Notes: generated from the letters alone by a model not told the origin. Numbered from the whole stretch's first letter, positions 3,231-60,960 are shown. The stretch is 63,014 bases of DNA, filler included, from Reclinomonas americana ATCC 50394 (GCA_048213135.1; 5 parts of 2 records of this genome joined end to end with filler, not necessarily neighbours in it), one strand, 5' to 3'. A program made the numbers and translations.

Positions 3231-3506
3231 TGTCGACGTCGACGTTGAAATCAAACAAACAACAAATTCAAACAAGCGACAGCAAGCTGCTGTCTTGATG
3301 CAAGTCCTATCCGAACCATCAACATGAACGCAAGTCTTGAGGGCAGCGGGAGGATATCATGTGTGTGTGCGCGCGCGCTCTCGGAGCTTCGAACAATTGC
3401 AAGCCGACAACGCCCTCATCAAAGGTTTCACAGAGCCAAGACACAGCTGTTGCTAATCTATGTTGCTGAACCACACGACTACGTATTCCCGACAGCATGC
3501 ACGTCT

Positions 3507-6500
3507 TTACCAGGCGGTTCCAGATCCCGCACTCACTCTCCCTGAGAATTCCCCGGCATCCGTCGTCAGCCCCGCTCCGCATGTCAGTACAGCGTCGTCC
3601 GCACCTCCGACCGTTGCTACTGCATCGGGCACCGTTCTCCGCGCTGGTGCCTCACACAGGCGCTTGAGTTCATCGTGTACGTACGATGCCGACACACGTG
3701 TTGCTTGCGGCCTCTGTATCGTATACGTACACACAAAATAAGAATGCCGGCTTGTCCCCCCTCCCATGGCGTAGCACGCAACCCAGCACTGCCGAATGAG
3801 ATTCCGAATGTCCGGCGAAACGGTCGCTCGCACTTCGTCATCGTCAAGATTGCCAGGCAAGACACCTTCATGCATGCAGCGCATGATGACCGGCAGAGAC
3901 ACACCACAAAATGGTTCCCTGCGTGTGGCGATGAGCCAGAGCAGAGAACCGAGTCCATACACATCGGCTCTCTCGTCGTACTGTGAACGGCGCAGCAATT
4001 GTGAGCGAATCGCACACTGCAAGAGATGCCAACCGCACGCGCACCTCGGGACCCAACATGGCTTCCGGTGCAGCGTACGCCGCCGTGCCGTGGTTCGATT
4101 GCATTTTCCCGAGCGTACCGTGGATTCTGGCCTCCCCAAAATCGCACACCTTTGCAACAAGTCGGTCCTCGCTGATGAGAATATCTGTCGACAGATGAAA
4201 GGTCATGATCAGTTGGTGGTCCATATTCGCTCACCTGTTCCACTCTCAGCTTTTACGTGCGTGGTGTGGTCTGCCTCACTCACTGTTAGCCAATTTCTCA
4301 ACGACGTAACTCTGTGGCTTGAGATCGCGATGTACCACTCGACGACAGTGCACATGAATCACTGCCGACGCCACTTGTACAAGCAACTTGAGCAACTGTT
4401 GCGTCGGCACACGGCCATCCTTTACCAGGTCGTGCAGCGTCTCTGCATTTCCCTGCGCTTTCTCTTGACCGATGTATTCGAGGACGAGACCAAGTCCGCT
4501 CGGGTCGTCATTGCACACGGCCATGAGTTTCACAATGTGCGGGTGACTGTGTGCAGAAGCAATAAGTGCCAACAATCACATAGCAACACAGCGGAGTGCT
4601 CACAAAGAAACACGCAACTCGAGCTGCATCAGCAACGAGTGTTCGTTCTCGAAGCTCTTGCAAACGCGGTCCCAGTCATCTGCGTTCCTAACCAAGTACC
4701 GCTTGTACGCCACGGTCTGCAATACACCGCCAAGACAGAGAGTGGCTCGAAAGACAGCATTTTGTCCTGTACATGTGATGAGATGAGCACCATGGTATCA
4801 ACTCGTTGTACAGCCGAGAGCAGTCTCACTGGCGCACACCGATGGCAAGCTGCCTCGAGGTCGCCAAGTCAGAGAAAGGCACAACGGGGGCGCGGATTTT
4901 GAATCTGGCCACCTTCTCCTTCAGCATCTCAGCCGTCACGTTGATGCGACTCACGGCTGTGCGGAGAAATGAGAAACGCAGAACCAGACTTACCAGTACA
5001 TGTGCGTGAGTGCTGCGATCGCAACTGTCGTATGATTGAAAGAGAAGACGGATGCATTCGTGTCCGTCGGGGAATAGAGTGTGGAGCGAATCGCGGACCA
5101 AACGCATGACGCTGACATACTCGGCGTCTTCGAGGGCAGAGAGCCGAGCAAGATGAGATACGCGGTGACGCACATCTCTCAAGTTCTTCACGGCTCGGAT
5201 CTGCACGGTAGAGCACTCAGTGTAATGTACACCATAACGTAGAGAGTGCCAACAAGCAAACCTTTGCCGGGTTGGCGAGGAGATGCACAGCACATCGATC
5301 TTGATTCGCGCCGGGGTCGAAACGAACAAGGCTATCCTCCAAATCTTCATCTCGACAATCGGCGGCGCACACAAAAGTGGTGTACAGCAGCAGAGTACTG
5401 AGAAGCGAGACATCCATGCCCGTCGTCACACCAGTCCTCTTGAATGCGCGAACTGCTTCATAGTTGGAAGGATACAGGTTGGCTGAGCGCATGGAAAAAT
5501 TGCCATGCTTGTCACGAGTCATTCGACAATATCTACCAGACGTGGTGATGGATGAGATGCGATGACCAGGAGGCAGCACATAGAAGACAGCGAATCCGCT
5601 CTTTTTCCAAACCTCGGCGGTGGAACCGGGCGGCAGAGTTGCTCAATGTCGAATTCACCAGGGAAGTAACCAGCAATGAGTTGTTCCAGCAGAGAGCCAA
5701 GTGCTAACGGAATGACCTCGTGCACGACTTCGGTGAGCATCAGGATCGGACGGCGGTCACTGTGCATTTGGCCAAAGAGTGAGGCGAGTCACTAAAGCAC
5801 TAACGGCGACCATGGGTTAGAAGAAACCTGAGAAAGTCCATATGGAAGAGTGCGCGCAGCTGATCTTTCGCCTCATCAGCCTTGCGTCGCAATTCCTCGC
5901 ACTCAGCAGCGGCTGCAACAAGCTGCGCACGGAGGGCACTGCATTCCGCGGTGGGGACGTCAGCAGCGAAACCGGCTGCGGCAGATGCCAATTCGAGTCT
6001 GAGCTGATTACGATCGGCGACTAGCGCGTCGGCAGCACGCTGTGCGGCGGCCAAGTCTTCTGAAAGCTGGTGGCGATCTGCTGCGATTGCCTTCACTGTA
6101 GCTCGAGCAGCAGCAAGATCTGCAGTAAGTTGCTGGCGCTCCGCTGCCATGGTCATGACGGCGGCTTGAGCAGCAGCGAGGTTCTCAGCGAGTCGGTCGC
6201 GCTCCGCCGTGACAGTACTGATAATGCTGGTTGACTTGTCGACTGCAGCAGGCGAACATCGAAAGCAAATGAGGCACGCATGTGCAAGCGAGAGCAAAAA
6301 TTAGACTTAACACGACAGGAAGAGACAAGCGCGCACTGAATGCGATGAGCGAGAAGGGAAGCATACGGACCTTGCGCGATCGCAAGGCGGAGATCTTGAC
6401 GCAGCTGAGCAACAAGTTGGTCTCTTTCCTCCAGTTGCCGGTTGACGGCGAACCGAAAGTCGTCCTTCTCGCGCAGAGCTGCAGTAAGCTGAGAGGCGAA

Positions 6501-7602
6501 TACGTCTCGTTCAGCCTGCAGTTTCGAGTCAGATCGCTGCCATTCCGAGTTGACCAGTTGGAGTTGGGTGTTGCTATGCTGCAGCGCTCGTTGTAGTTGT
6601 TCCACGATATCTTCTTGTTCTTGTCGCTGATAGTCAGACTGCCACTGCTGTTGCTCTCGCTCGTGCTGTGCCGCAGCCAGTTCTTTCTGAGCTGCAGCCA
6701 GATCGCGCTGATATTGAGTGAGCTGTCGTATCACGGCATCGTCATCAAAAGGCTGCACAAGATGCGCGAGTGAATGCGAGGCTTCCAAATGCAGACATGC
6801 GAGGGATGATGAGAGTAACAAACTTGCTCACCTGACGTGATGCGGCTGCACGATTCCCCCGAGTAAGAAGAGCAAAAATAACGGCAATGTGAGTGGAGTC
6901 AAAAACATGGCTCGAAGCATAGAGCTCACACCTTGCGGCGATCGTGGTACCGGTGGTTGCGCCGAGACGTAGTCCAGTAGTTCGGCCACCGGCTTCTTAC
7001 CGACGCCACGGGCCCACTGAGCCGCCGTTTCTCCGCCTTTCTTGGTCTTCGGAATGAGGTCGGGGAAGCGAATCGCGAGAAGGAGAGCAATGGCCTCTTC
7101 GCCGTTGACTGCAGCGGTGTGCAACGCAGTGGACTGGGGATTGTCGTCACGGTCGTTGGTTACCGCCCGCACCGTCTCCGGTGGACATCGTCGCTCGTCG
7201 GCGAGCAACCACAGCACAACTTGCAGCCTCCCATTCTCGGCAGCAGTCATAAGCGGCGTCCAGCCGGTATCGCTGACCAGCTGTGCCAGTTGCGGCCCCA
7301 CGCCACTCTCCTCCCACAGATACGTCAGCACAGAGAGATGGCTTCGGTAGGCGGCAATGTGAAAGGCCGAAATGCCAGACGCATTCCTCTCTTCTCTCTG
7401 CAGCAGAGTGCGTGCACCCTCATGCGCCACCAACACTCGCAGTGCCTTGACGTCGCCATCCCACGCCATCTCCCATGCTTTCTTCCTCTGCGGTGCCAGT
7501 GGAGCACTCGCACTGCGCATCAACGCACACACAACATGACAGACAATATAAGCGCGCGAGAGAGTGTGAGAAGAATGCGACTCTTTTAACAACGCACCTC
7601 AT
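3507..7602 (-). CDS. Ankyrin repeat - coiled coil - HEPN(DZIP3-like) - TKL-type protein kinase, multi-exon
   Basis: First coding exon is 5 nt (ATGAG, 7602-7598). ANK repeats (GWTPLMTAAENGRLQVV, TALHTAAVNG) at ~6930-7510; 14-nt micro-exon; coiled coil ~5850-6750. HEPN-like motifs LYP...MDVSLLSTLL...IRAVKNLRDVRHRVSH at ~5030-5760. Kinase motifs VAYK, HPHIVKL, HRDLKPQN, DFG, GTAAYAAPE, DVYGLG, CW. Frame is kept across all inferred GT-AG introns; stop at 3507. Confidence 0.85.
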
Positions 7603-7854
7603 GTTGAAGAAGAACTTGCTTTTAACACACCACACTTCAGCGCGCGCTCTCCGAACCGCTTTCGTTTCCAGTGCCGTGTCGTCCTGTTTCGTTGTCGGGT
7701 TGTCATGACGGACACTGTGACAACTTCAATGATAGATATGCGGCTGCCGTCTGTCAGCAGAGAGCCGGGAAGGTCGGTAAGCTCTCAGTTTCTTCTCTCT
7801 TTCTTTGTCTCTGTGGCAGCTTCCTGTTGACGTCGTAAAACTCAACAAATTCAT

Positions 7855-10336: not shown

Positions 10337-11419
10337 GTTTTCTCGGTCACGAGACCACGCGCGTGAGCAGCGCGCAGTTTGCCACTCCACGCGCACACTT
10401 GTCGCAAATGAATGAATCTCTGTCAAATCCGCGAACGGGCGACACTGACAGGATACTTGATCGGACACATGACGGGGCTTGGTAGTGGCGTGCGACGTCA
10501 ATCAACGTCGTGATTGGTCATGGGAGAGAGAAAGAGAGGGGAGAGGGAGAACGAGCAAGGGGATTAGTGCACACAGCGTTGCCGGAGAGACTGATGCACT
10601 CACGCTGTCGAGGCGATCTGCAGCCGGAGACAGACACAGATGGAGGCTATACCACAGTCCACCAAGCGCCTACACCGTCGTGTAACAGCAATTCAAGACA
10701 AGTCGAACTGGAGAACGCGGCGTTGAAGATGAGACTTTTTCGAGCACACGCCGAGAAAGTTCGTGCACTCAGGAGCGCGATGGTGACGTTCAAAAGCTCA
10801 ATGAGTCGACTGATTGTGCACTTAGCCAGCGTGACCAAATCAGCATGCAGATTGATCCGGACCTCATTGCATCACTCAATCGACTGGTGGTTCCTCTTCA
10901 CACACCTCACCACCATCGAGAGTTCACCAACAGCCCGGCAATACGCTGCGTGCGGGCTGGTGTGGGTTCAATGGATAGCCGCCGCTGCAGAGCAGCGCCC
11001 CCGCGTCACGATGCGCTTACTCCTGGCATGCTGATGGCAAGGCGGTGCAAGAGCGGAGTCTGAGAATTNNNNNNNNNNNNNNNNNNNNNNNNNNNNNNNN
11101 NATTTTGGCAGGTGTTCCGTCACGCACAAACGTGTGTGCTGCTCTGCGCCCGTTCGCACGCTTTGTGCCGCCGTCGCCATGGTCACCGGTGCCAGGTGTC
11201 TGGGGTCGCTTACAGATCGGCTTTCAGCAGCGGCTGTTCATGTCAGCAACTGGTGTGTGTGTGTGTGTGTGCACGTGTGTGTGTGTACATTGACATTATC
11301 TGACAAGTTCCTCTCGCCATCAGCATCTGTCACAGATTCGAGTGAATGTGAGCGCGACCTTTTCCGTGCTGTCGCTGGACTGTGATGTCTCACCGCTGGC
11401 GTGTCATTATTGCCTTGCA

Positions 11420-29878: not shown

Positions 29879-31544
29879 TGTCGAATACAAAATCGACGAC
29901 TTGCAAAATCCGACAGTCTCATGACAGGCATCGACGTCCATGCAACAACAACCCCAACAAGCAACAGCAACAGCAGCAGCAGCAGCCTTGATGGTCTCCA
30001 AAGCATCCACAGACACGTGCACTTGCATGACCGATTAATATTTGCGCCATGAATTCGAAGTTCTGCACGTGCACCACACCAGCCAGCTCGACCGTCGCGT
30101 TTGCTTGGCTTTGCCGTGCTGCAAGAGAGGATGACTGTTTGGAGAGGATCGTGTATGTTCGTGCCGTGGTCATTGTCGGCAAGGGATTTGTGCATGTCAT
30201 GAACGAAGTGTCTTGTGTTTTTCTTCTCAGTGGCTCTGCGTTCTCCTCTGTGGCACCTACATCTGTGCGCGACCCGCTGGACTGTTCTAAATATGGACTA
30301 TCACGCCGTGCCCTTCGCCGCAGGCAGCGCACGTCACAGAAGAACATATCGTCCGTCGCGCCTGTCCTGTTTCGTACCAAATTATTCTCATCTGACGGGA
30401 GAGCGTAGACAACTCCCTCCTCCNNNNNNNNNNNNNNNNNNNNNNNNNNNNNNNNNNNNNNNNNNNNNNNNNNNNNNNNNNNNNNNNNNNNNNNNNNNNN
30501 NNNNNNNNNNNNNNNNNNNNNNNNNNNNNNNNNNNNNNNNNNNNNNNNNNNNNNNNNNNNNNNNNNNNNNNNNNNNNNNNNNNNNNNNNNNNNNNNNNNN
30601 NNNNNNNNNNNNNNNNNNNNNNNNNNNNNNNNNNNNNNNNNNNNNNNNNNNNNNNNNNNNNNNNNNNNNNNNNNNNNNNNNNNNNNNNNNNNNNNNNNNN
30701 NNNNNNNNNNNNNNNNNNNNNNNNNNNNNNNNNNNNNNNNNNNNNNNNNNNNNNNNNNNNNNNNNNNNNNNNNNNNNNNNNNNNNNNNNNNNNNNNNNNN
30801 NNNNNNNNNNNNNNNNNNNNNNNNNNNNNNNNNNNNNNNNNNNNNNNNNNNNNNNNNNNNNNNNNNNNNNNNNNNNNNNNNNNNNNNNNNNNNNNNNNNN
30901 NNNNNNNNNNNNNNNNNNNNNNNNNNNNNNNNNNNNNNNNNNNNNNNNNNNNNNNNNNNNNNNNNNNNNNNNNNNNNNNNNNNNNNNNNNNNNNNNNNNN
31001 NNNNNNNNNNNNNNNNNNNNNNNNNNNNNNNNNNNNNNNNNNNNNNNNNNNNNNNNNNNNNNNNNNNNNNNNNNNNNNNNNNNNNNNNNNNNNNNNNNNN
31101 NNNNNNNNNNNNNNNNNNNNNNNNNNNNNNNNNNNNNNNNNNNNNNNNNNNNNNNNNNNNNNNNNNNNNNNNNNNNNNNNNNNNNNNNNNNNNNNNNNNN
31201 NNNNNNNNNNNNNNNNNNNNNNNNNNNNNNNNNNNNNNNNNNNNNNNNNNNNNNNNNNNNNNNNNNNNNNNNNNNNNNNNNNNNNNNNNNNNNNNNNNNN
31301 NNNNNNNNNNNNNNNNNNNNNNNNNNNNNNNNNNNNNNNNNNNNNNNNNNNNNNNNNNNNNNNNNNNNNNNNNNNNNNNNNNNNNNNNNNNNNNNNNNNN
31401 NNNNNNNNNNNNNGGGGGGAGAGCATGGGGGGAGAGCATGGGGGAGAGCAAAGGGGGAAGAGCATGGGGGAAGAGCATGGGGGAAGAGCATGGGGGAAGA
31501 ACAAGGTACAAATGAGAAGTAAGAGAAGCAGAAAGAGAAAGGCG

Positions 31545-34500: not shown

Positions 34501-37500
34501 NNNNNNNNNNNNNNNNNNNNNNNNNNNNNNNNNNNNNNNNNNNNNNNNNNNNNNAAGGGAAGGAGGAAGGGGAAATGGAATGGGGAGACGGAAGGGGGAG
34601 ACGGAAAGGGGAGACGGAAGGGGAAGAGGGAAGGGGGAGACGGAAGGGGGAGACGGAAGGGGGAGACGGAAGGGGGAGACGGAAGGGGGGACGGAAGGGG
34701 AAGGAGGAAAGGGGGACAGGGAGAAGGGGAAGGAAGCGGGGAAAGGGGGCAGTGGAAGGCGCGAAGGGGAAGGGGAAGGGGAGACGGAAGGGGGAGACGG
34801 AAGGGAAAATAGAATGGGAAGATGGTAGAGGGGAAGAAGAGGTGGAAAGGGAGAAGAACAGGATTCGTGATACACAATGCAATCAGTTGCCCAACTCACC
34901 GGCAGTCGCGTGTGCGCAACAGCGCCAGTTTGTCGCATCCCTCGCACGACAGCTCTTCCACACCCGCGCAGCTGTTGATCTCCAACTGTTCCAGCACGTC
35001 TGTTCGACGGCGCGTGTGGGAAAACACAAGAAGGCGACTGCCACGACCAGGAATGTGCAGACAAACCGCAGCGAAACAAGATGCGTGCCACTTGCTGGAA
35101 CCCGTGAAAACCAATGTGTGTGACCGACGGTGATAATAGCGTAAGGTCGCGCAGCAGCGAGTGTGGACACACGAGTTCGATCTCGCGCAGTTGCAAGCAC
35201 TGCGGTGACACGCAAATAGAAGTGAGGGGCCGACTGGCTACTTTCGCACAACCGTCGCAGCGTACCAGTTCAAATATCAACTGCGCCATTGGCGGCGTGA
35301 AGGTGGGCCAGTTGCGAATGTGCAAGTTGGTCAGCAGCTGACACTCTTCCTGCACCGGTGGATGATGGGGAACGCCATCATTCAGCATGCAAGGTACAGA
35401 GAGCAAGCCTTGCGCTCGACTCACCAGAAACCGATGCAAACAGTCAAACGACACCTCGCCAAAGTCGGCGCGCAACACGCGCAGCTCACGACAGGCCATG
35501 AGACCCACCAGTTCGACGTCGCCAATCGCCACATTTCCCATGCCATCCAGTCGCACCGAGGTGAGTTTCTGCGAGGTCACTTGTCAGTGATCCACCTCAC
35601 CAACACAGCGAGAGAGTTGAGGGGAGGAGACGCACCGGGCACGAGGAGGCCAGGATGTGCACTGCGCGCTGCGTCAGTCCGCGACAGAACTCAATGTTCA
35701 GTTCCTGTGGGCGAGTGTCGTCAGCGATCACCGAGGAAATCACCGTCACGGGGTCAAGAGTAACCTCGATGGACCACAGACTCGACAGGAACTCCTGCAA
35801 GCCCTGATCGGTGATGCGCTGCTGGCCAGAGAGTGTGGCCGAGCGCAGGTGTGTCAGACGGCCCAGTTCACGCAGCGACGCGTCGTTGATCAAGAACGAG
35901 TTGGCCGCCGAGTTGCTGGGAGTGGCGGTGGCAGTGGCGGCGGCGGCTGCAGCAGCAGCGGCTTGGACAGCACCGTCGTCGACACCGGTGGTCTCGGAGG
36001 GGTGGGAGGCCGCTTGCAGCAGCAGCTTCTCCACTGATCCGCAGAGCTCCGTGAAGAGCCGGAACTGAGAAGGGGAAGGGGGGAAGGGAGAAGGGGGAAG
36101 GGGGAAAGGGGATAAGGGGAAGGGATGGGGGAGAGAAGGGGGAAGGCAAGGGGGAAGACAAGGAAGAAGACACAATGGGGAAGATGAAAAGGGGCAGGGC
36201 GGAAGGAAGGAATACAAGTGAAGAGAGAACGGGAGTGAGTGGGAGACGAGCGATGGCGAGGAAGAAAACAAGAGAAGACGGACACACAAAGAACAACGAG
36301 AAGAATTGAAGACCGGAGAACAATACATGCATGAGGAATAAGAAATGGGGAGGAGGAGAGGGAAGTGGTAGCGCAAGGTGAAGGACAACTAAGAAGAGAA
36401 GAACAAGAAAACAAGAGGAGACGAAGAAGAACAAGGGAGGACGAGGGGAGGAAGAGAAGAAGGACCGACAGCTCCCTTTCTTTGTCATGCACGTACATTC
36501 TGTGGAGTCAAATCCCGACAATCACGCGGGAACACCACACTGCGCAGTCGCTCCCGTTCATGCAACGCACGCAGCAGCTGTGAACAAACAAAGATCGTGA
36601 GAGATGCACAGAGAGAAAATGAAAGAGAGAACAACATGCATCGCGATCGACTTGTCTCTTGTGAAAGGGAAAGAGACACTCACAGAGACAGAGACTGAGA
36701 ATCAGGATGAAGAAAGGCACAGAGCCTCATGCATCGCGCTCAACTTGTTAGAGAGAACGACGGCATACACAGACAGAGACAGAGAATGAGAAAGAGAGGC
36801 ACAGAGAGCTTCATGTATCACTCAACTTGTCTTACTTGTTAAGAACGACGGGCTCTCTTTCTCCCTCTCACACTCACAAACAGAGAATGAGAAAGAGAAA
36901 GAGGAGAAGGAAAGAGAGCTTCATGCATCGCGCTCAACTTGTCTCTCTCATGAGAGAAGGAGACACCCGCACACACAACAGACAGACAGGGCAAAGAATG
37001 CGGAAGAAGAGAAAGAGGAAGAGAAGGATAGCACAATGCATCGAGCTCAACTTGTCTCTTGTAATAGAGAAGGAGACACCCGCACACTTTCTCTCTCTTT
37101 CTCCCAGGCAGACAGAGAATGAGAATGAGAATGAAAGAGGAAGAGGAAGAGAAAGAGAAGGAAACAGTCATCTCTCTTGTGTGCGTTTGAGAGAAAGAGG
37201 CTCTCTCTCCCTCTCCCTCTCCCTCCTCTCTCCCTCTCTTCTCTCTCCCCTCTCCCCTCCCTCTCCCTCTCTCTCTCTCACACACACACATGCGCGCAAC
37301 AGCAAGAATGTTCCTCATGGAAGGCGGCAGATAACCTGTCTCCATCAGCAACTGCAGATTGAGAGCGGCTGGTGCGCGTCGAGCCACATAGTGTAAGCGA
37401 CGCGACACGAGACAGAGCGAGAGGAATCGCTCGGAGAGTGGGAGGAACTGTATGTGAGAGAGAGTGAGTGAGGCAGAGAGTGTGTGTGCATATGGGGTGT

Positions 37501-38294: not shown

Positions 38295-40941
38295 TGGAAC
38301 AGAGAGTCAGAAAGAGACAATGCGTGGTGGGAGTGAGAGGTTGAGCGACAGACAGAGTCGTGCGCGCGCGTGTGTGAGAGAGAGAGAGAGAGGCGGGGAA
38401 AGGGTGGAACACAGAGTCAGAAAGAGACGATGCGTGGTGGGAGTGAGAGCAGAGCCAGGATTGAAGGGTGGACCAGAGAGACAAGGAGGGGGGCAGAACA
38501 GAGAGAGAAAGAGAGAGATTGAGTGGAACGAAAAACAGGGAGAGACAGAAAGCACAAAGGGCACAAACGCGAAGAGAAAAGAGCGAGCGCAAAAGACAGA
38601 AATCGTGGACAGGAGAGTTCTCCCGTGTGCGAGAAGCGCACGAAGAATGACGTGATAATCAACAATTGTCGACACTGACCCTTGGTGAGCACGGCAGCAG
38701 CCAGGCCTGCGACGAATCAACAGTGAGTGAATCATCCCACTGCAACAGAAGAGAGATTAATGGGGGACGAACCAAAGTTGCCGCTGTTGGCGCGGTGAAT
38801 GACCTGCGTAGCCACAATAAAGAGTGAGCGCACTGCAATACGAGGGGGGAGCACATGGGAAGACAGGATCGCACCTCGTCAACGTCCGTGAAGCGCATGA
38901 CGCACACGACCGGGCTGTACAGGGAAGAGCGGGTATGAGAAGCAGAGGAGGGCAAAAAAGGACACGGCCAGACGCACCCGAAGATCTCCTCCTTGGCAAT
39001 GGTCATGTCGTCGCTCACCTCGGTAAAGATGGTCGGCTGTCACCCGAAAGAGCTCAATGAGTGGAGGGAAAGGAGGGTTGAGGGGGTATAGTGAAGGAAA
39101 GAGGAAAGAGGAAGGGAAGTGTGTGAAGGGAAGCGAGGAGAGGACACAGTAAAACGCGCACTTTCACTCGCTCGCATTCTCACTCACAAACTGATTCACG
39201 CAGGCACATACACACACAATGCACACACGTCGCTCACATGCACTATAAAAAGGGAAGGGCGAACAGAGAGAGAGAGAGAGAACAGAGACGGAGAGGGCAA
39301 GTGAGACTGAGGAAGGGAGGGAGAATGGAACGGTAGGGATAATGAGCGAGATTGAGACAGGGAAAATGAGAGGCTAGTGCACAAGACACTCACCCACTCA
39401 CAGAAACACATATTCTTCCGTATCAGTAACTTCGCTCATGTCGCTCATACATACACTTGCAAACTATCACACTCACTCCGTATCACTCTTGTCTCTCATT
39501 CACGTCGCTCACTCGTGCACCCAGGCATTTGCAACCTAACACACACCCTCTCCCTCTCTATTCTCTCTCTCTCACGCACCTCGACAAAGTAGCCACGATC
39601 GCCGACACGCTTGCCACCGCACGCCAGGGTGGCACCCTCGGCCTTGCCCTTCTCTGCGACGTGGGGAGGTGGTAAGTGGTCGACGCTCGCACTTTTCTGG
39701 AAAGTCGACAACTCACCGATGTAGCCCATGACGCGGTCAAACTGCTCGTCGCTGACCTGCGGGCCCTGACTGCACGGACGGATGAGTCGCCACGACTCCA
39801 CACAGCACTCCGCGCATGCACAGACGCAACTCGGTCTCATGGTGGGTGGGGTCGCCGACCTTGCGGGTCTTCGCGAGGGCAACACTGCGTGCCACAAACT
39901 CGTCGTAGATGGCGTCCTCCACGTAGACTCGTGACGAGGCCGTGCACACCTGACCGGCGTTGAAGAAGATGCCCTGGTGGGCAGTCTCCACAGCGTGGTC
40001 GAGGTCCGCGTCCTTGAAGATGACCAGGGGGCTGAGGAAAGGGGAGGGGAAAAGACAAGAGTGACCACCAAGGAAAATAGAGAAGAAAACGGCAGCAAAG
40101 ACAGCAAGGGGCAAAAGACACAGATTCAACGAGACAAGAGGAAAAAATGTAGTTGGGGAAGCAACACACCTCTTGCCGCCGAGCTCCAGGCTGCAACGTT
40201 TCAGGCTGGCCTGCGCAAGAAGAGTGTCAAGGGTCTGTAGAAAGCGACACAAGCACAGGGTGATTGAATACCTTGGCTATGCGGTGGAAGTGATGGAAGA
40301 GGAGGAAGAGGAGACTGGTGAGTGAAATCGCTTGGGCATTTCGGGCGTGTGGAAAACAAACCGCAAGCTGTGCAGCGAGAGAATGAAATGAGTGAAATCG
40401 CCGAGTGAAAACAACGAAAGAGCATGGAAACGCACCTTGCTGAATGATCTTGCCGACCTCCAGCGAGCCAGTGAACGTGACTGGCAGACACATGAAGTCA
40501 GTCGCGTGATTTGTCATCGAATCACACCAAGGCGTGTACGCAACCCTTGTCAACGCCCGGGTGGGCAGTGATGGCGCCGCCAGCAGTCGGGCCGTAGCCT
40601 GCATTGGTATATTTAGCAGGCGGGATAATTACAGAGCACGACTGAGACGCGGCTCACCGGGGACGACGTTGAAGACTCCCGGCGGGAAGCCAGCCTCGCG
40701 CACAAGCTCAGCCATGCGCAACGCCGTCAAGGGGGTCTGCTCCGCAGGCCTGTGGGAAAGAGGTGAGCGACGGGAGATGACAAGTCAGCATGCGGTGTTG
40801 ACGCACTTCAGCACTGCGAAGATGAGAAGTCAGTCAGACAATTACAAAGGAGACAGAGAGGTAACATAGCACGAACCAATGGTGCAGCCCATGCAGAGAG
40901 CGGGGGCCATCTTCCACGTGGCCATCAGCAGCGGGAAGTTC
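37705..40941 (-). CDS. Aldehyde dehydrogenase, ALDH1/2 family, 5' partial
   Basis: [39 protein letters not shown] (catalytic Cys), [31 protein letters not shown]. Confidence 0.95.
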
Positions 40942-41117
40942 CTGCGCAACCCACAGTGAGCGAAGGGAGAAAGAAAAAGGAGAGAGAGGGGGAGGAGGGA
41001 GAGCGAGGAGAGGGAGAGGGAGAGAGAGAGTGGGAGAGGGAGAGACAAGACAGACGGAGACGGAGAGACGAAAGACAGGAGGAGAGAAAGAGAGATAGAG
41101 AGAAAGAGAGAGGGAGG

Positions 41118-41176
<59 letters not shown>

Positions 41177-41320
41177 GAAGAAGAAGAAGAAGAGTAGTAG
41201 AGAAAGACGACGAGACGAGAGAGGAGAGAGAGAGAGAGAGAGAGACGACGACGAGAGAGGAGGAGGAGACGACGACNNNNNNNNNNNNNNNNNNNNNNNN
41301 NNNNNNNNNNNNNNNNNNNN

Positions 41321-43590: not shown

Positions 43591-46069
43591 CTTCTCCCAG
43601 CACCGTCTACCTGCGTGCGGGTAACACCAAGACCACTCAGGAGGCCATCACCTTCACCGGCATCTCCCCGGCTGTGACCGCCTCTTCGGTGTTCACCATC
43701 CGCAGCGCCGCCGACTGCAGCGGTGCCGACTCGCCCACCACCACTCTCGGTGCCGTCACTCTGACGGCCGGTGCCTCGCAGGCCCTGACTATCATCTCCA
43801 CTGCCGAAACCGCTGCAGCGACTCGCTACCTGTGCCACGATCCCGATGGCGCCGGTGCTGCCGCCAACCAGTCGATTTCCAAGATCCAGATCTGTTGCGT
43901 CAACTCACGCTCTCTTTTCACGATGCCTCTCTGACTGACACCCACCACCACAGTCTCCACGTCCTCGGCCTCGCCGTCGTCGCTGCCGTCGGGCTCTGCC
44001 TCGCTTACGCTGACGGTCCTTGGCTCCAACCTGGCGGCTCCATCGTCGGCCAACTTCTACCTCACTGCCACCGATCCGGGAGCAGCCACCAACGCTTGCA
44101 GTGCCACTGCCGTGACGGGAACTTCTGTGACCTTTGCTCGCGCCTCGGCCACCACCGTTGTGTTCACGGTGGCCACGGCGACCACCTTCGCGGGGTCCAG
44201 TGCGCAGGCTGTGACCACACCGACCGCCACCCAGTTCTGCACTGCTCCGGCTGCCGCAACCTACTACCTCTGCGGCTCGTTGCGTTTCCGTTTGTGTGTG
44301 TGCCACAAGACTGCATCATTCGGCTCTTCTCAACACTGCTTCTTTGCCTGCGCAGGTTCCAGAACTCCGGCACCAACAACCTCATCAGTGCTGTGGGCAT
44401 TGTCGATCCGTCGGCCATGCAGATCGCCTTCGCCAACCCGACCGTGCTCAACTACAACGCCGCCAACACCATCACCATCTCTGACGCGGCCAAGTCGCTG
44501 AACAGCTGCACTCGCTTCAAGATCATTCGCCCCGACCAGACTTGCGCCGACGATGTCAGTTTCGTACGCGCACACACCCTCAAGCCGTTGCCCGGCTGTG
44601 TGCGCCGCTGTGAAACTCATTCATCTTTCTCTGTCTCTGCACAGCCGCCTCGTCAGCCACGGCCAACACGAACAACGCCACTGGCGCCCTGGGCACCGTC
44701 AACACCTACACGCCCGGCAGCTTTGACGCTTCGAGCTGCTTCGACTCGTCCACTGGCTGCAACTTCTTCAAGATCTCGTTCACCCCGCAGCAGCCGGGCA
44801 CTTTCCGCTTGTGCGCCAGCCGCAACAATTCGGCATTTGCAGCCATTCCGGGCGAGCAGTTTGTCTCCGGCATGCAGCAGGCGCAGGGTTCCCCCGCAGC
44901 CATTGCCACAGTTGAGACAAACACGTTTGGAGAAAATGGGTTGAGTCCTTCTCACCAGTGTTGCTTCGACTATTGATTGCAGTTCGGCACTCCGGGTACG
45001 GTGCGCACCGCCGTCGCCTCCGCCACCTTCCCGGTCACCTTCCCCGCGATTCCGCGCATCCTCGTTGGCTTCACGGCATACGCTGGCAGCACGGCGGTGG
45101 ACACTGGCGTGTCGTGCGGTACCCCCTCGGTGACTGCGACTGGCTTCAGCACCACCTGCACCGCCCTCCGCGCTGCCACTGCCACCAGTCTCCAGCTTGG
45201 TGAGAGCAATCCCCCACGCCTGTGTCGTCTCTCGTTGTGCCTCACTCCTGCTGTGATGCCAGCGTACTTTGCGTTCTACGCGCACTCCTCCAAGGCATTC
45301 TCGTTCGATGGTCAGCGCATGCTCAGCAACGGCGCCTCCTGGAACAGTGTCGCCACTGCCAAGTCGTCATCGACTGTTGCGTATACTCGGCACCACGGAT
45401 GAGTGAGCGGTGTGGCGCGATGAGTGCCAACACGTGCGTGTCATGTGCAGAACACCAGCGTGTCGAACATTTACGCGTTCGGCACTGCGCCTTCGGTCGC
45501 TGTTGCGTTGATGGGTGCTGCCACTCGTCGCTTCGGAACCACCAATCTAGACTTCCGCAACGACGTTTTCTACGGCTCGATCGCTTCCGTGTCGTCGATG
45601 GCCTTCACCCTGCGCGGTGTGGTGTCTGGCAACGCGCGTGTGGACTCGTTCGGCACACGCTACATTGCTGGCCCGGCGGTCGCGGACTCGAAGAACACGA
45701 GCGGCTTTGTTGTGCTGACTGGCGGTGAGTATCATGCTCCCTTTTGTATTTGGTCACCCACGTACTCACATTCCGCTGCGTGTTATTGTTGTTGTTGCAG
45801 AGGGCGAGGCCACGAGTGCTTCCGCGGTGAACCTTACTTTCGCCAACAGCCGCCGCCTGTTGCAGACCAACTTCCGCGCTCAGCAGTTCATCCGCGGCCT
45901 GGACAACACCGGTGGCGCTGGAGGCACTGCCAATGTTTCCGTGAGCGCCATTGCCGGCTACGACACCAACGGCAGCGCCACCGACTGGGAGGGTGTGACG
46001 ATCACCATTGCCAACGTTGGCAACAAGGTGCAAGTGTCGTACATTGCACTCGGCACCCCGGCTCCGTAA
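43591..46069 (+). CDS. Ser/Thr/Ala-rich, probably secreted protein with about three C-terminal H-type-lectin-like repeats (5' end in gap)
   Basis: Beta-rich Cys-paired N-terminal repeats (YLC, FRLC), then VTFPAIPRILVGF...SVTATGFS, FGTAPSVAVAL...VSSMAFTL...RYIA and FIRGLD...VSYIALG, resembling the H-type lectin FxxxPxVxV...TxxGF...xYIA pattern. Stop at 46069. Confidence 0.6.
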
Positions 46070-50282: not shown

Positions 50283-53200
50283 ATGGCGCGAGCCTTCAAC
50301 GCCAGCGCTCCCTTATCTGGTGACACCGCCATGATGGGAGCAGATGGTACGCTGGTGACCGCCGTCAAGACCAACGCTGCCACACCCATTTGCACGACGG
50401 CCGCCGATTGCAACAATGGCGGCACGTGTGTTGGTGGTCTGTGCTCATGCTTCCCCGGCCTCGGCGGCACACGCTGCGAGTGCCGCCCAGTCGAGACATG
50501 CAAGTTTCGTTGGCACTGCCAGCAGTTGTCTCGTGTTTTCGATCCCCCTTCTTTTGTTCTCACGCCCGCTCCCTCCACACAGTGGTTACGGCGAGTGCGA
50601 CGACACCGGCAAGTGCATCTGCCACACCGGTCGCACCGGCGACAATTGCCAGTGCACCAACGGCATGGTGGGACCGAACTGTGATCAGCAGCCTCGTTGC
50701 GTCTACTTGCAGAGTGTGCGCCTGCCTCTACCTGTTTGCTCAAGCAAAAGTATCTCTTCATTTTTCACGTGGCACAGCTCCGCAACCTCCTTCACAGCTC
50801 ATCTTCACGCGACCGAACAGCGCGCTGCCGCTGCCGCTGCCAGTCGCGCCCGGCGTGACCGTGGCCTCGCTTGACGCTCGTGACCCAAACCCTACCGACA
50901 CGTTTACCTTTTCATTGGTCGCCGGTGACGGAGATCGTGACAATGGGTTGTTCAAGATCAACACGCGCAATCTGGACTTGCCCGCCACGGGCACTGGCTT
51001 GCCGAATCTCAGTGTTAAGAACCCACCGCTGCAGATCCGCTTGCGCGTCACCGATCAGACAGGCTTGTTCCTGGAAAAGGCAGTGACGATTCCCGTCAAC
51101 AACTCGCCCTCCGACCTCAAGGTGTGTGTGGCCGCCCTCCTTCTTCTTCTTCTTCTTCCTCCTCCTCCAGATCTTGTTCACTCACGGTTCTCTCCCTCAT
51201 CCCCCTTGCTCTCTTTCATGTGGATCAGGCCGACACCACGTTCTACCGCAGTCCGGCGGTGAGCGGGGCGTGGGTGGCCAACATTGCCTCCACGGACGAC
51301 GCCGGAGATGTGAGTGTGTATAGCATCACCTCACAGACGCCTCTGCGGGCGTTCAAGGTCTCCAACTCCACGCTGGTGATTGACACGCCACCCACGGGTG
51401 ACGTGACCATCCGCCTTCGTGTGACGGACCCCGGCAACAGCATGTACCTGGAGCGCGTGTTCACCTTTTTCGAGGCCGTGCCACCCAGCAACATCACCCT
51501 CAGCAACAATCGGTACCCCTACCCTTCCACGGCTGGCGACCTCATTGGCTCACTGACCACGGTCGACACTCGCCCCGGCAACCACACGTTCTCGATCTTG
51601 GCGTGCACGCCGGCCAATGCCGTTGTACTTGCCGGCACACAGAACGACCAGCTGCGCGTTGGAGCCGCACCCATTTCCGGAACGGTTACGGTGCGCGTAC
51701 GCACCCTCAACACGTTCAGTCAGCTGTGGCTCGACATGGATCTGGCGCTGCTGGAGACCAACGTGGCGCCCACTGGCATGTCACTGGCCATTCTCTCCGA
51801 CCCGTACCCGCTGCCGCTGCCGGTGGCGAATGGCACACTGATTGGCACGCTGGCGACAACGGATCCGAACATGGTCGACAAGTTCACATACTCGCTGGTG
51901 GCAGGCACCGGCGACACCGACAACGCCTTCTTCAACATCACCGGCAACGGCCTGTACACGAAGAACACGTCGACCATTCCCTCCAATTTCTCGCGCTCGC
52001 TACAGGNNNNNNNNNNNNNNNNNNNNNNNNNNNNNNNNNNNNNNNNNNNNNNNNNNNNNNNNNNNNNNNNNNNNNNNNNNNNNNNNNNNNNNNNNNNNNN
52101 NNNNNNNNNNNNNNNNNNNNNNNNNNNNNNNNNNNNNNNNNNNNNNNNNNNNNNNNNNNNNNNNNNNNNNNNNNNNNNNNNNNNNNNNNNNNNNNNNNNN
52201 NNNNNNNNNNNNNNNNNNNNNNNNNNNNNNNNNNNNNNNNNNNNNNNNNNNNNNNNNNNNNNNNNNNNNNNNNNNNNNNNNNNNNNNNNNNNNNNNNNNN
52301 NNNNNNNNNNNTGCGCCTGCAGACCACCGACTCGGGCGGTCTGACGTTTGCGCAACGCTTCTTCCTGCCAAGTTTCGTCCACATCTCTCTCTCTCTATCT
52401 CTTTCCACTGCTCCCACTCTCTGCTCACTCATTCCTACTTGTGCATCCACCAGCCAACATGGCGCCGCAAGACATTGTGATCACGTCCAACCGCTACGCA
52501 CTGCCACCAACAGTCGGCGCCACTATTGGCACGCTGTCGGCAGTCGACGCGGCTGGTGACACACACAAGTTTGAGCTGCTGGCCATGCAGCCGTCGGGAG
52601 CCTTTTCACTGAACGTGGACAAGCTGCTGGTGAACTCGGCCACCATCTCTGGCAACAACCTCAACGTCACTGTGCGAGCCACCGACAAGATCAATGGTCG
52701 TTTTGTGGAGAAGACCCTGACGATTGCGGAAGGTGCGTGTGTTTGTTGGCCTGCAACCCTCTAGCGTCTTTGCACCATTATCGCTTACCACACTTTACCC
52801 CCTTCATAGCGTCCATGCCGCCCACCAACATTACGCTGCGTTTCGACTATCTCGGCAAGCTGGCCCTGCCGGTTGTTGGTAACACCGTGATTGGTGCGCT
52901 GACGGCCACGGACCCCAACACGGCGGACACGGTAACATTTTCGATGACTACCGGCGCCAACGCCACCGACAGCGACAACGCCTACTTTTACATCTCTGGC
53001 ACTGCGACACTGCGTGTCGTGCCGGCCGGCATCCCGAATCAGCAGCGCACGCCCATGATTGCAATGGTGCGCGCCACAGATTCGAGTGGTCTGTTCGTCG
53101 ACGTGCGCCTCGAAGTGCCGGTGAACAACGCCCCGAGCAACATCGCCGTCGATTACCCGTACTACACCGTGCCGCCGGTTGCCACCATGATTGTCGGCAA

Positions 53201-56079
53201 CGTGGTGGTGGCCGACGACGTTGGCGACACGGCGCTGCTGTTCATCAACTCGCAGTCGCCGGCTGGCATTTTCACGCTGAGCGGCTCGCAGCTGGTGATG
53301 GCCTCGGTGCCGACACCGACCGCCGGTGTTTACCCGACCATCACCCTCTCGCTGCGTGCCACCGACTCGGTGACCAGTCGGTTCATCGACAAGAGTTTTG
53401 TTGTGCAGCCGGATCTGCCAACCACCGTCAAGGTCGACCCCGGCGTGCCGGTGCCGCCGTACCGAGTGGTGCCGACGCTCTCCTCGGCCCCGCTGCCACT
53501 GGCTCTGCCGCTCTCTGGCAGCACCGTGGTGGCCACTCTGCAGGCGCTGGACCTCAATGTGGGCGACACATTCAACTACACGCTGGTTGCCGGTACCGGC
53601 GACACCGACAATGCCAACTTTGCGCTGGCCTCCGCCACTGGCGTGCTGTCAACCAAGGCGGGCGTCTCAGTGGCTGGCGGACGCAGCACGCCGCTGCGCA
53701 TTCGGGTCCGCGCCACTGACCGCTCTGGCCAGTCGCTGGACACGGCTCTGCAGCTGCCCATCAACAACCCGCCGAGCGACGTTGTGTTGTCGACGACTTC
53801 CATTGCCTCGGCCGCGCTGTCGGGTGCGGTGGCTGCCAACATCTCTGCCATTGACGATGTCGGCGACACGCACACCTTCTCCATCCGCTCACAACAGCCG
53901 ATCGATGCCTTCTTCTTGTCCGGCAATCAGCTGATGATTGGCACGCGATACAGCGGAAACCTGTTGGTGACCCTGCGCGCCGCTGACACCAAGAACGGCG
54001 TGTTCCTCGACAAGGCCTTCACCATCACCTCGGCCGGTGGTGTCGCGCAGCCAAGTCCAGCTGATGCCTACTACTCGTCCACCTGCTCGGCTGGTTTCAA
54101 GGGCGACTGCACCGTGCGCTGCGTGGCTACCGACACTTGCGTTGCGTAAAAATCCTCTTTCATTCTCCTTCTTCTTTGCTCGTGTGGACTGCTTGCTGAC
54201 ATGCCGCCTTTTCTTCTTTTTTCTTTTTCGCAGACTGGTGGCTGCACCACCAAGGCCACAGTCACCCAGCAGGTGGCGCAAGATGGCAACGGGCGGCGGC
54301 GATGGACTCTGTCGCGCTGCTCACGCCAGATGCGTATCCGCGGCGGCACCAGTGTGGTCACGCAGTCCGACATGCAGTTCCTGCGCTCGATTGGCGGCAA
54401 CACGGTCTACCTCTACGGATTGGACCAGTTGAACTCACCGTTCCTCGACAACTTGTACCAGCTCGGCATGAACGCCATTGTTGGCTTCAAGCTCCAGGCG
54501 GAAAAGGCCACTGGTCGTTTCGACCCCTTCACTTGTTGCGTCTGTTTCAAATTTTTTGCACCCCGTTTCGGTTACGCTGACATTGTGTTGATCGTCTACG
54601 TAGATGGCGCGTCCAGCGATGCCGAGGCGGCGCAAGTTGCCTTCTTGGTCAGCGTGGTGAATCTCTACAAGGACCACCCCGCGCTGCTGGCGTGGAGCAT
54701 TGGAGACAATTTCGCTTCGACATTTGCCGCTGGCGACCGACTGCGCATTTACCAGTCGATCAACACGATTGCGACGGCCATCAAGGTCGCCGACAGCAAC
54801 CACCCAGTTATCATGCCGATTCTGGATTCGGAGTCGATTGCTAGCGGTGCGGCTGCCGCCATCTCTGCCGTCGACATGCTGCTCGTGTCGACATCGTCGT
54901 CGGCCACCAAGCTGCCGAGCACATTTNNNNNNNNNNNNNNNNNNNNNNNNNNNNNNNNNNNNNNNNNNNNNNNNNNNNNNNNNNNNNNNNNNNNNNNNNN
55001 NNNNNNNNNNNNNNNNNNNNNNNNNNNNNNNNNNNNNNNNNNNNNNNNNNNNNNNNNNNNNNNNNNNNNNNNNNNNNNNNNNNNNNNNNNNNNNNNNNNN
55101 NNNNNNNNNNNNNNNNNNNNNNNNNNNNNNNNNNNNNNNNNNNNNNNNNNNNNNNNNNNNNNNNNNNNNNNNNNNNNNNNNNNNNNNNNNNNNNNNNNNN
55201 NNNNNNNNNNNNNNNNNNNNNNNNNNNNNNNNNNNNNNNNNNNNNNNNNNNNNNNNNNNNNNNNNNNNNNNNNNNNNNNNNNNNNNNNNNNNNNNNNNNN
55301 NNNNNNNNNNNNNNNNNNNNNNNNNNNNNNNNNNNNNNNNNNNNNNNNNNNNNNNNNNNNNNNNNNNNNNNNNNNNNNNNGACGCTCTCAACTCCACTCT
55401 GCCGTACATACTAGCGTACGGAGTGCCGAGCCCGGCCGACTCCACCAAGACGGCGTGGGGCGCCCCGATCGAGATGACCACAGCCAGCGCGGCTGACTGG
55501 CAGCTCGCTGTCCAGTCGGCAGCGCGCAGCGACGGCCGTGTCATTGGCTCCATGGTCGACTTCAGCTTCCGCATGTCGTCGGCCACTGTAGCCGCCGGCA
55601 GCACCCTGACATGGAACAGTCTGTTTGTGCCTCCGCAGTTGGCGAGTGGCATGCCACGCACCGCCGCTCTCGACCAGCTGCGTTCGCAGTGGTTGGGCGA
55701 GATTGGCGGTGCGGCCGACGCCTCGTACAAGCCAGCACCACAGCTGCCGACCACCAACGCTCTCACCACCAGCATCAGCCTGTCGTCGGTGAAGCGCGGT
55801 GTGGCGGCCAGCGCGGACGTGTACGTCAGCTCGGTGACCACTGGCTGCGCGCCACTCAAGTTCGCCCTTCAGATCCGCACGGACGGCTCACTCACCACCG
55901 ACGCCCTGGCTATTGTCGGCGACGAGTTTGCCGTGGCGCCCGATCTCAACAACAGTTTGCACTACCGTGTGACGTTCCAAGTACCCGTGGTCAACGGCCC
56001 GTACAGGCTGTTTGCTGTGGTTACAGATCAGTGCGGAGGCGCAGCAACGGCGAACACGCCGTTCCAAGTCACAAGCTAG
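50283..56079 (+). CDS. Large extracellular protein: EGF-like repeats, bacterial-type cadherin-like repeats, GH-A (GH2/GH158-like) TIM barrel lacking catalytic Glu, C-terminal beta domain
   Basis: CNNGGTC..CSC..GLGGTRC EGF motifs. Repeated DPN..D.FTYSLVAGTGDTDN..F.I and IRVRATD..G cadherin motifs at ~50780-54030. GGNTVYLYG, YKDHPALLAWSIGDN, KTAWGAPIE, GPYRLFAVVTD..GGAATANTPF. Stop at 56079. Confidence 0.8.
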
Positions 56080-60322: not shown

Positions 60323-60960
60323 TCAACGCGTGCCTCTTGTCTCTTCACGTGCGCGCTGAACGACGATGAAATTTTGGTGGCACGAAGAGGGGACTCTCTT
60401 GAGTGGTGACTCTGTCTCGCTCGCTCCCTCACGCACTCTCTTTCTCTCGCGCGCGTAAATAAAACGACGGGTGAGAGCGTCGCGGAGACGCGGGATTATA
60501 ATACGAAAATTGAAAACCAGACCGCAAATTGAGGACGGCCGTCGACTGGAATGGGCTGGTGGAAAAGCACTTGTTTGCGTGCGAGGTGAGCTGCGTGTGC
60601 ATGCGTGCCTGGCTCTCTTTCACTATGTGTTCCACGTGTGCACGGGGGGCCTCTACGGCGCCGCGTCTCGTTTCTGTTTGTTTGTGCGGAACACAAGGAT
60701 GGGCCATCTCTCCCTCACGCGCTTGCTCTCCCTCTCTGTTTCAATCGCTTCATTGCTGGGCACGTGCACATGTGCGGGTATCTCTCTTTCTTATTCCCGA
60801 ACAGCTCCTCTGTCTACCCCACCGCGCGCTTTGATAAGTGCGCGAACAATATAGCGTCACTCCAACTCCGAGAGTGTCGTCAGCCGTGTTCACTCAATCT
60901 CTCTCTCCCCCCCTCTCTCTCACACACACAGAGAGACAGGTTCATCGCGCACCACGCACC

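Follow-up and report, generated by a model that had tools for sequence, protein, structure and literature searches.

The 63,014-nucleotide (nt) window of Reclinomonas americana ATCC 50394 DNA analyzed here (GCA_048213135.1), consisting of five parts of two records joined end to end with filler, carries on its minus strand, at positions 7602..3507, a predicted gene of 13 exons. Its product would contain, in order from the N-terminus, ankyrin repeats, a coiled coil of about 265 residues, a middle region of about 260 residues (amino acids (aa) 466–725), for which we tentatively propose a relationship to the HEPN superfamily, and a protein kinase domain. The gene model was derived from the minus-strand reading of positions 3300–7800 translated in three frames. 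All 12 introns are of the GT..AG type, 61–128 nt long and compatible in phase, giving a single open spliced frame with a coding sequence of 3105 nt and a predicted protein of 1034 aa. The GC content is 0.505 in the introns and 0.574 in the coding sequence, with a GC content at third codon positions (GC3) of 0.52–0.67 in all exons longer than 100 nt, and no run of N lies inside the gene, the nearest ones being found at 2203–2528 and 11069–11101. Because of the open frames, the splice phases, and the occurrence of the same domain order in a neighboring paralogue, it is very likely that the architecture composed of ankyrin repeats, coiled coil, orphan helical domain, and kinase is real as a gene model. 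A previous interpretation of this locus made without database searches (hereafter the sequence-only reading), which had assigned the ankyrin repeats, coiled coil, middle region, and kinase to one gene, is thus most likely correct in this respect, as judged from the GT..AG exon model and the Pfam matches.

The proposed start codon is contained in exon 1 (ATGAG, 7598..7602), which is spliced in frame to exon 2; with an alternative ATG located downstream in the same frame, the N-terminus would be slightly shorter, and the start in exon 1 is given as a proposal only. Exon 2 (6932..7512, aa 2–195) encodes the ankyrin repeats, as indicated by matches to the Pfam families Ank_2 (E-value (E) 9.9e-18, 64.9 bits), Ank (48 bits), and Ank_3 (47.5 bits), together with Ank_4 and Ank_5. 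Searches of protein collections with this exon returned three generic ankyrin proteins at 28–35% identity and no orthologue. Exon 3 (6832..6845) is a micro-exon of 14 nt flanked by AG and GT, without which exons 2 and 4 would not be in frame. The following two exons encode the first (exon 4, 6371..6752, aa 201–327) and second (exon 5, 5828..6242, aa 328–465) segments of the coiled coil. The whole stretch of aa 201–465 has only two Pro and one Gly in 265 residues, with almost none of either in exon 4, and includes four tandem 21-residue (three-heptad) repeats at aa ~339–422 in exon 5. The only families that it matches, in exon 4 as well as in exon 5, are coiled-coil families at sub-threshold scores, such as APG6_N for exon 5, where the score of 26.5 bits (E 9.8e-6) falls short of the cut-off of 45. 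A crude heptad count did not separate aa 201–465 from the kinase region; a long coiled coil is nevertheless a reasonable reading of this composition.

Immediately upstream on the same strand, at about 10300–7858, there is a tandem paralogue for which the same order of ankyrin repeats (Ank_2, E 1.1e-20), coiled coil, and kinase is predicted, showing that these three parts constitute one type of gene. The ankyrin repeats of the two copies share 57% identity over 205 aa and their first coiled coils 34%, and the kinase domains can be aligned over 29 residues only, with 52% identity. The paralogue has neither the second coiled-coil exon, including the four tandem repeats, nor any part of the HEPN-like middle region. 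As far as the predicted gene structures go, one of the two tandem copies has either gained the middle region by insertion or lost it, and this pair with and without the insert provides a natural control for what the middle domain adds.

The kinase domain is encoded by exons 9–13. Exon 9 (4619..4766) corresponds to the N-lobe with the β3 Lys in the motif VAYK (4713–4702), exon 10 (4311..4546) to the hinge through the catalytic loop with HRD (4332–4324), exon 11 (4045..4184) to the segment from DFG (4143–4135) to APE (4071–4063), exon 12 (3783..3980) to the C-lobe, and exon 13 (3507..3713) to the end of the kinase followed by a 68-aa tail and the stop codon, with no Pfam family matched. The Pfam family Pkinase (PF00069) matches three of these exons, namely, exon 10 (E 9.9e-12, 45.2 bits, above the cut-off of 31.7), exon 11 (27.1 bits), and exon 12 (16.7 bits, profile positions 174–244). 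Thus, the catalytic motifs, including the Asn of HRD…N, are kept in what the sequence-only reading had described as an apparently intact kinase. That description does not extend to the glycine-rich loop, which reads IGQNAVF in place of GxGxxG, as compared with the canonical GEGGQG of the paralogue (whose HRD and DFG motifs are also present), nor to the N-lobe, for which exon 9 alone gave no kinase match in sequence searches of Pfam or the PDB. The protein may still act as a kinase, although, with a degenerate glycine loop, its ATP binding may not be normal. Among the PDB matches listed for the 78-aa exon 10, the closest are AMPK, CDK6, SIK3, and NEK7, and neither IRE1 nor RNase L is found among the best 60 of the 85 PDB matches of this exon, the only kinase exon so tested. 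No KEN-type domain follows the kinase, the 68-aa tail being the only sequence there.

The middle region is encoded by exons 6–8. Exon 6 (5613..5759, aa 466–514) is hydrophobic and helix-like, and could, by inference only, supply HEPN helix 1. Exon 7 (5262..5532, aa 515–605) contains LYP (aa 534–536, 5477–5469) and MDVSLLSTLL (aa 554–563, 5417–5388), in which we presume to recognize the motifs LYP and D[IV]xLL that we take to be hallmarks of the DZIP3 family. The HEPN core is a pair of α-hairpins, four helices in all, in which helix 2 bears a conserved acidic residue; exon 7 is a candidate source of this helix, which would contain Asp555, and of an insert behind it. The first 43 codons of exon 8 (5072..5200, aa 606–648) encode a predicted motif helix, a loop, and the next helix, and are the sole stretch with measurable HEPN similarity; they include RHRVSH (aa 616–621, 5153..5170, coordinates assigned by script), an Rx4H motif with Arg616, His617, and His621. 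The remainder of exon 8 (4840..5071, aa 649–725) encodes two further predicted helices and a linker that runs up to the kinase N-lobe and has the degenerate glycine loop at its end. All of the motifs named in the sequence-only reading, that is, LYP, MDVSLLSTLL, RHRVSH, VAYK, HRD, and DFG, were found on the minus strand at the positions given here. Within exon 8, an intron-like stretch of 37 nt (about 4994–4958, minus strand) with a GTAAGT donor, a pyrimidine tract, and CAG is read through in the gene model. This stretch is probably not an intron, its removal leading to a stop codon directly afterwards and its length being shorter than that of any of the 12 introns; were it spliced, the product would be an ankyrin/coiled-coil/HEPN-like protein without the kinase.

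The pattern R[NDH]x3H occurs only once in the 1034 aa, as RHRVSH, with the Arg, the polar residue, and the His all at the canonical four-residue spacing. The chance of finding such a bare motif in 260 residues is, by a rough estimate from composition, a few per 100, and the motif alone therefore proves little. The sequence-only reading had considered a nuclease activity uncertain because the usual Asn after the Arg is replaced by His; this concern is unfounded, since, according to the passages on the motif in a survey of HEPN domains (PMC3710099), the position following the Arg is in most cases occupied by N, D, or H. In the same passages, the motif is said to conclude helix 3, with the loop to helix 4 coming next, helices 2 and 3 are noted to be often separated by inserts, families are described as poorly conserved outside the motifs, and possession of the motif is treated as predictive of RNase activity (PMC3710099). 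In an AlphaFold2 model of exon 8 alone (120 aa; mean predicted local distance difference test score (pLDDT) 69.5, predicted template modeling score 0.52), residues 2–20 form a helix carrying the motif at 11–16, followed by a loop (21–24), a second helix (25–42), and helices at 47–56 and 62–99. The motif helix extends four residues beyond the His, with a pLDDT of 64–68 there, and the pLDDT falls below 50 from residue 103, in a fragment that was folded out of its context. The model, with the motif in the later part of a helix that precedes a loop and another helix, would be compatible with the placement given in the survey (PMC3710099). HEPN nucleases recur among the sub-significant fold matches of this model. 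The corresponding model of exon 7 alone, with helices at residues 21–32 and 41–57 of the piece, had a pLDDT of 41 and was too poor to use.

Profile comparison pointed to the same stretch. The Pfam model PF18738 (HEPN_DZIP3) gave no match over its cut-off in 401 Bacteroidota genomes, with one piece at 17.9 bits, and none of 14 control genomes was positive. Because PF18738 was not found in prokaryote genomes, the related family HEPN_Swt1 (PF18731), matched above the Pfam cut-off in 31 of the 401 genomes, was used instead, and 30 of its bacterial domains served to build a local hidden Markov model (HMM). Against this HMM, the spliced 280-aa middle region scored 6.5 bits (E 4e-4 for one sequence), a score reached by none of 2000 shuffled sequences, and the first 65 aa of exon 8 scored 9.3 bits (E ~6e-5 for one sequence), again reached by none of 2000 shuffles (maximum 3.8 bits), with the reversed sequence at 0.8 bits. 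In the alignment, Arg616 and His621 fall on the R and H of the profile motif R-N-x-x-A-H, and the match runs through the loop into the next helix; hmmalign aligned nothing beyond the motif hairpin. Two sub-profiles made from disjoint halves of the Swt1 family both recognized the 65-aa stretch (5.8 bits with 12 sequences, 9.4 bits with 18), while three profiles built as controls from segments of these bacterial proteins outside the HEPN domain gave −1.0, −1.8, and −1.5 bits. When 330 stop-to-stop open reading frames (ORFs) of the window were scored with the Swt1 HMM, the ORF containing exon 8 ranked first with 6.6 bits, the next one reaching 2.9 bits. As a yardstick for these figures, two accepted HEPN families fare no better against each other: 30 members of the HepT family score 3.2 bits or less with the Swt1 HMM, and the 30 Swt1 members do not exceed 8.3 bits with a HepT HMM. 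Incidentally to this survey of genomes, HEPN_Swt1 was found at the N-terminus of open frames of 1114–1222 aa in at least 10 Bacteroidota genomes; in another, the frame has 728 aa.

A protein-language-model atlas provided a third lead. The cluster nearest to exon 8 is an unnamed viral one (score 0.87), followed, among the named rows listed, by DUF4559 (0.86), HEPN_DZIP3 (0.84 and 0.80), and HEPN_Swt1 (0.77). One cluster of 143-aa sequences carries HEPN_DZIP3 in 55% and DUF4559 in 12% of its members, indicating that the two models cover the same domain. Accordingly, the profile, the language model, and the predicted fold, each of them a weak line of evidence, agree on HEPN, and two of the three on the Swt1/DZIP3 clade, all of them converging on a single helix-loop-helix of about 40 residues; the agreement lends weak support to a HEPN origin.

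On these grounds, we tentatively interpret the middle region as a highly divergent helical HEPN-superfamily domain of about 200 aa, which lies closest to the Swt1/DZIP3/CXorf38-type clade and would be active as an RNase in a dimer, an interpretation falling somewhat short of being probable as a whole. Its fold is the safer part, a HEPN fold of the middle domain, whether active or inactive, being moderately probable. The domain is best called HEPN-like and filed under neither PF18738 nor PF18731, and a new HEPN architecture is a plausible, albeit unproven, description of the protein.

Several results weigh against this interpretation, and a number of them favor an alternative in which the middle region has no HEPN ancestry and serves as a helical spacer or regulatory module peculiar to this lineage, for example, as an extension of the coiled coil or a regulatory bundle at the N-terminus of the kinase, its motifs being chance look-alikes in a helical sequence rich in Arg, His, and Leu. 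First, none of the three middle exons is matched by a curated HEPN profile. The domain spans three exons separated by introns whose lengths are not multiples of three, and the tests against curated libraries and structures were run on single-exon pieces; furthermore, the filters of HMMER conceal weak matches with a per-model P above ~1e-5. With such pieces, exons 6 and 8 were left without a Pfam family at E ≤ 10, and DUF3234 (17.4 bits, below the cut-off of 23.7) was all that Pfam reported for exon 7, neither HEPN_DZIP3 nor HEPN_Swt1 being reported for any of the three at this threshold, so that the HEPN profile match proposed in the sequence-only reading as its own check failed at the level of exon pieces. 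PADLOC and NCBIfam gave no HEPN family for exons 6–8, the only PADLOC match of exon 6 being HerA (E 0.086). Second, the Swt1 profile is blind to exons 6 and 7, and LYP and MDVSLL, which had been put forward as upstream HEPN signals, therefore add nothing measurable; in the language-model atlas, exon 7 has no named lead. Third, hhalign comparison of the spliced domain with the Swt1 alignment yielded a P of 0.011 and a probability of 3.9%, and among about 700 null ORFs two unrelated ones reached 5.9 and 5.4 bits (best domain), so that a score of about 6 bits can be a chance result. Fourth, the atlas scores of exon 8 are all below 0.9 and rank as leads only, its recognition value of 2090 is below 2300, and no more than four of the ten best family hits agree, a situation in which the rule of the tool is that the family is probably wrong.

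Fifth, no relatives of the middle region were found from which the conservation of the motif could be judged. The PDB sequence search with exon 8 gave 12 matches at E ≤ 10, the best being an IMP nucleotidase (E 0.24), without any HEPN protein. Word-seeded protein searches with the same exon gave 238 candidates, none with E ≤ 0.01, and seven candidates in a nearer set, none with E ≤ 10. In metagenome contigs, 392 pattern matches of exon 8 and 196 of exon 7 were all unconfirmed, as were the 11 of exon 8 in viral contigs. The sole phmmer match of exon 8 among 1.84 billion representative sequences (E 2e-6, in five stretches) is a 1438-aa tandem-repeat protein without a Pfam HEPN domain, which we regard as a repeat artefact. 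No homologue was thus present in the protein, metagenome, and viral collections searched. In addition, the Foldseek search of the exon-8 model against the PDB gave no match at E ≤ 0.001, a HepT-type HEPN profile scored the 65-aa stretch at −1.1 bits with 779 of 2000 shuffles as good, and the reverse search of the 401 genomes with this stretch returned noise, none of the ~150 places listed lying, by eye, at the place of a HEPN_Swt1 domain. Finally, the ~40 residues recognized by the profile include the very motif by which the region was picked, and the profile test is therefore not independent of the selection.

Against a spacer of non-HEPN origin speak the score of the 65-aa stretch, unmatched by any of its shuffles, its recognition by both disjoint sub-profiles but not by the three control profiles or after reversal, the common direction of the profile, language-model, and fold leads, and the modeled position of the motif toward the end of a helix that leads through a loop into another one, much as in the survey (PMC3710099). 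We consider such a spacer possible, if rather doubtful. As for the HEPN domain claimed in the sequence-only reading, it is weakly supported by the resemblance of about 40 residues around RHRVSH to the Swt1 profile, together with the leads from the language model and the fold; exons 6 and 7 add nothing measurable to the profile match, and curated models give the exon pieces no support. A death-domain or MLKL-like bundle preceding the kinase was also considered, and dropped for want of any family hit in its support.

Another alternative accepts the HEPN ancestry and assumes that the domain no longer cuts RNA, serving instead as a dimerization or RNA-binding module that positions the kinases, so that phosphorylation would be the only output. 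The survey, in its account of individual families, describes HEPN families without catalysis that serve as binding domains (PMC3710099), the detectable similarity has been kept in the C-terminal hairpin only, the catalytic-loop motifs of the kinase are retained, and the paralogue works without the insert. On the other side, the Arg, the polar residue, and the His are all present at the canonical spacing, in a motif that the survey links to RNase activity (PMC3710099). We regard this alternative as improbable. The remaining explanation, that the gene model is wrong, exons 6–8 belonging to another transcript or the locus being a decaying duplicate, so that a protein joining ankyrin repeats, HEPN-like domain, and kinase would not be produced, is highly unlikely. 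In its favor, no predicted protein of this genome is present in the protein collections searched, the frame needs a 14-nt micro-exon and a consensus-looking intron-like stretch of 37 nt that must stay unspliced, and the glycine loop of the kinase has degenerated. Against it, each of the 12 junctions is of the GT..AG type, with fitting phases in an uninterrupted 1034-aa frame, GC3 stays within 0.52–0.67 in every exon longer than 100 nt and the introns are uniformly short, the paralogue has ankyrin repeats, coiled coil, and kinase together, and the middle exons sit between the ankyrin and kinase exons on the same strand without a stop or a start-like break.

Returning to the interpretation of the middle region as a HEPN-type RNase domain, the following mechanism can be envisaged, provided that the gene is expressed as predicted. 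Within an ankyrin/coiled-coil/Ser-Thr-kinase family, a lineage-specific member would have gained two pieces between the coiled coil and the kinase, that is, the second coiled-coil segment and the divergent helical domain of about 200 aa. The ankyrin repeats may bind a protein or small-molecule cue, and the ~265-aa coiled coil would hold at least two chains in parallel, bringing the HEPN-like domains into a pair, in which Arg616, His617, and His621, helped by Asp555, could form a metal-independent RNase site, as in HEPN dimers. The kinase domains, brought together in the same assembly, might undergo trans-phosphorylation, which would either license the RNase or relay a signal. In its most specific form, the proposal is that the protein is an independently assembled, kinase-coupled HEPN RNase from a eukaryotic group that has been little sampled, in which a Swt1/DZIP3-clade HEPN domain and a coiled-coil segment were inserted after the tandem duplication and whose activity is gated by oligomerization like that of RNase L and IRE1; taken with all these particulars, we regard it as unlikely, though not implausible.

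It is worth comparing the predicted protein with RNase L and IRE1, which are, to our knowledge, the only well-studied proteins combining a kinase fold and a HEPN RNase, with the KEN domain located after the kinase in both. If the HEPN assignment holds, the present protein would share with RNase L the N-terminal ankyrin repeats, a kinase fold, and a HEPN-superfamily RNase in one chain, and a dimer-dependent activity would be expected. However, RNase L has the order ankyrin, pseudokinase, and KEN, whereas here the ankyrin repeats are followed by the coiled coil, the HEPN-like domain, and the kinase, with no domain after the kinase; the HEPN-like part comes closest to the Swt1/DZIP3 type among the named HEPN profiles and clusters compared; and, in contrast to the ligand-induced kinase dimerization of RNase L, the long coiled coil is the likely dimerizer. 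The term RNase L-like applied in the sequence-only reading can therefore be kept as an analogy at most, given that the HEPN-like part precedes the kinase, that KEN is missing after it, that neither IRE1 nor RNase L is among the 60 PDB matches listed for the kinase exon, and that ATP binding by the kinase may not be normal; the likeness would be functional and not one of kinship. Similarly, the protein would share with IRE1 a kinase and a HEPN-superfamily RNase in a single polypeptide and, as a working model, activation driven by oligomerization, whereas IRE1 has a lumenal sensor, a membrane span, and a KEN domain C-terminal to the kinase, in place of which no membrane segment or KEN is recognizable here and the order is reversed. 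The nearest HEPN clade is that of DZIP3/hRUL138, CXorf38, and Swt1 by the language model, and Swt1 also by the profile, with the differences that the upstream half of the middle domain has no measurable similarity to these domains and that the Pfam models are silent on the exon pieces.

The domain combinations compiled in the survey offer further points of comparison. In the parts dealing with these families, DZIP3-type HEPN domains are described as fused to ankyrin, CARD, NACHT, Death, LRR, TPR, and RING domains and as expanded in animals and Capsaspora, Swt1-type HEPN domains as solo proteins in Naegleria, dictyostelids, and Daphnia, and KEN as the kinase-fused HEPN family (PMC3710099). No fusion of a DZIP3- or Swt1-type HEPN to a protein kinase is listed in Table 1 of that survey (PMC3710099), the HEPN passages of another article (PMC8195603) mention no such kinase fusion, and a phrase search of the literature for HEPN-kinase fusions found no paper; the further literature listed concerns animals only. 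If the interpretation of the middle region as a HEPN RNase domain is true, the logic of oligomerizing, phosphorylating, and cutting RNA would have arisen more than once in eukaryotes, here in combination with an ankyrin sensor and a dimerizing coiled coil within the same chain, the Swt1/DZIP3-type HEPN domain, described so far in immune-like proteins of animals and on its own in a few protists, would gain a kinase as a new partner, and a role in antiviral defense or cell suicide could be considered. As the claim rests on about 40 residues, its value at this stage is that of a cheap and well-defined test case, not that of a result.

As for the surroundings of the gene, Pfam was searched with 150 ORFs, out of 250 that passed a length and complexity filter and 516 in all. 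At E ≤ 1e-5, the only matches were exon-sized ORFs related to an aldehyde dehydrogenase (E 7.8e-23, 38662–40276, minus strand) and an SLC35F-type transporter (E 7.4e-10, 18805–19704, plus strand), the ankyrin ORF of the paralogue, and two kinase ORFs; among these 150 ORFs, at the same threshold, none of the domains identified around the gene was of an immune type. Four open frames of 408–524 aa on the plus strand, 43625–44941, 51019–52341, 52575–54146, and 60838–62061, have no Pfam family at E ≤ 1e-5, and that at 51019–52341 crosses a run of N (52007–52311). The window contains 26 such runs in total (e.g., 14911–15787, 16456–17234, and 30424–31413), which account for the bins of low GC content and strongly skewed composition. 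A (GA)n repeat lies upstream of the run beginning at 14911, and the window is read as a gapped or masked scaffold. Tandem repeats were also observed elsewhere in it, namely, (GA)n at 40980–41259 and an array of a 13-mer at 34565–34805.

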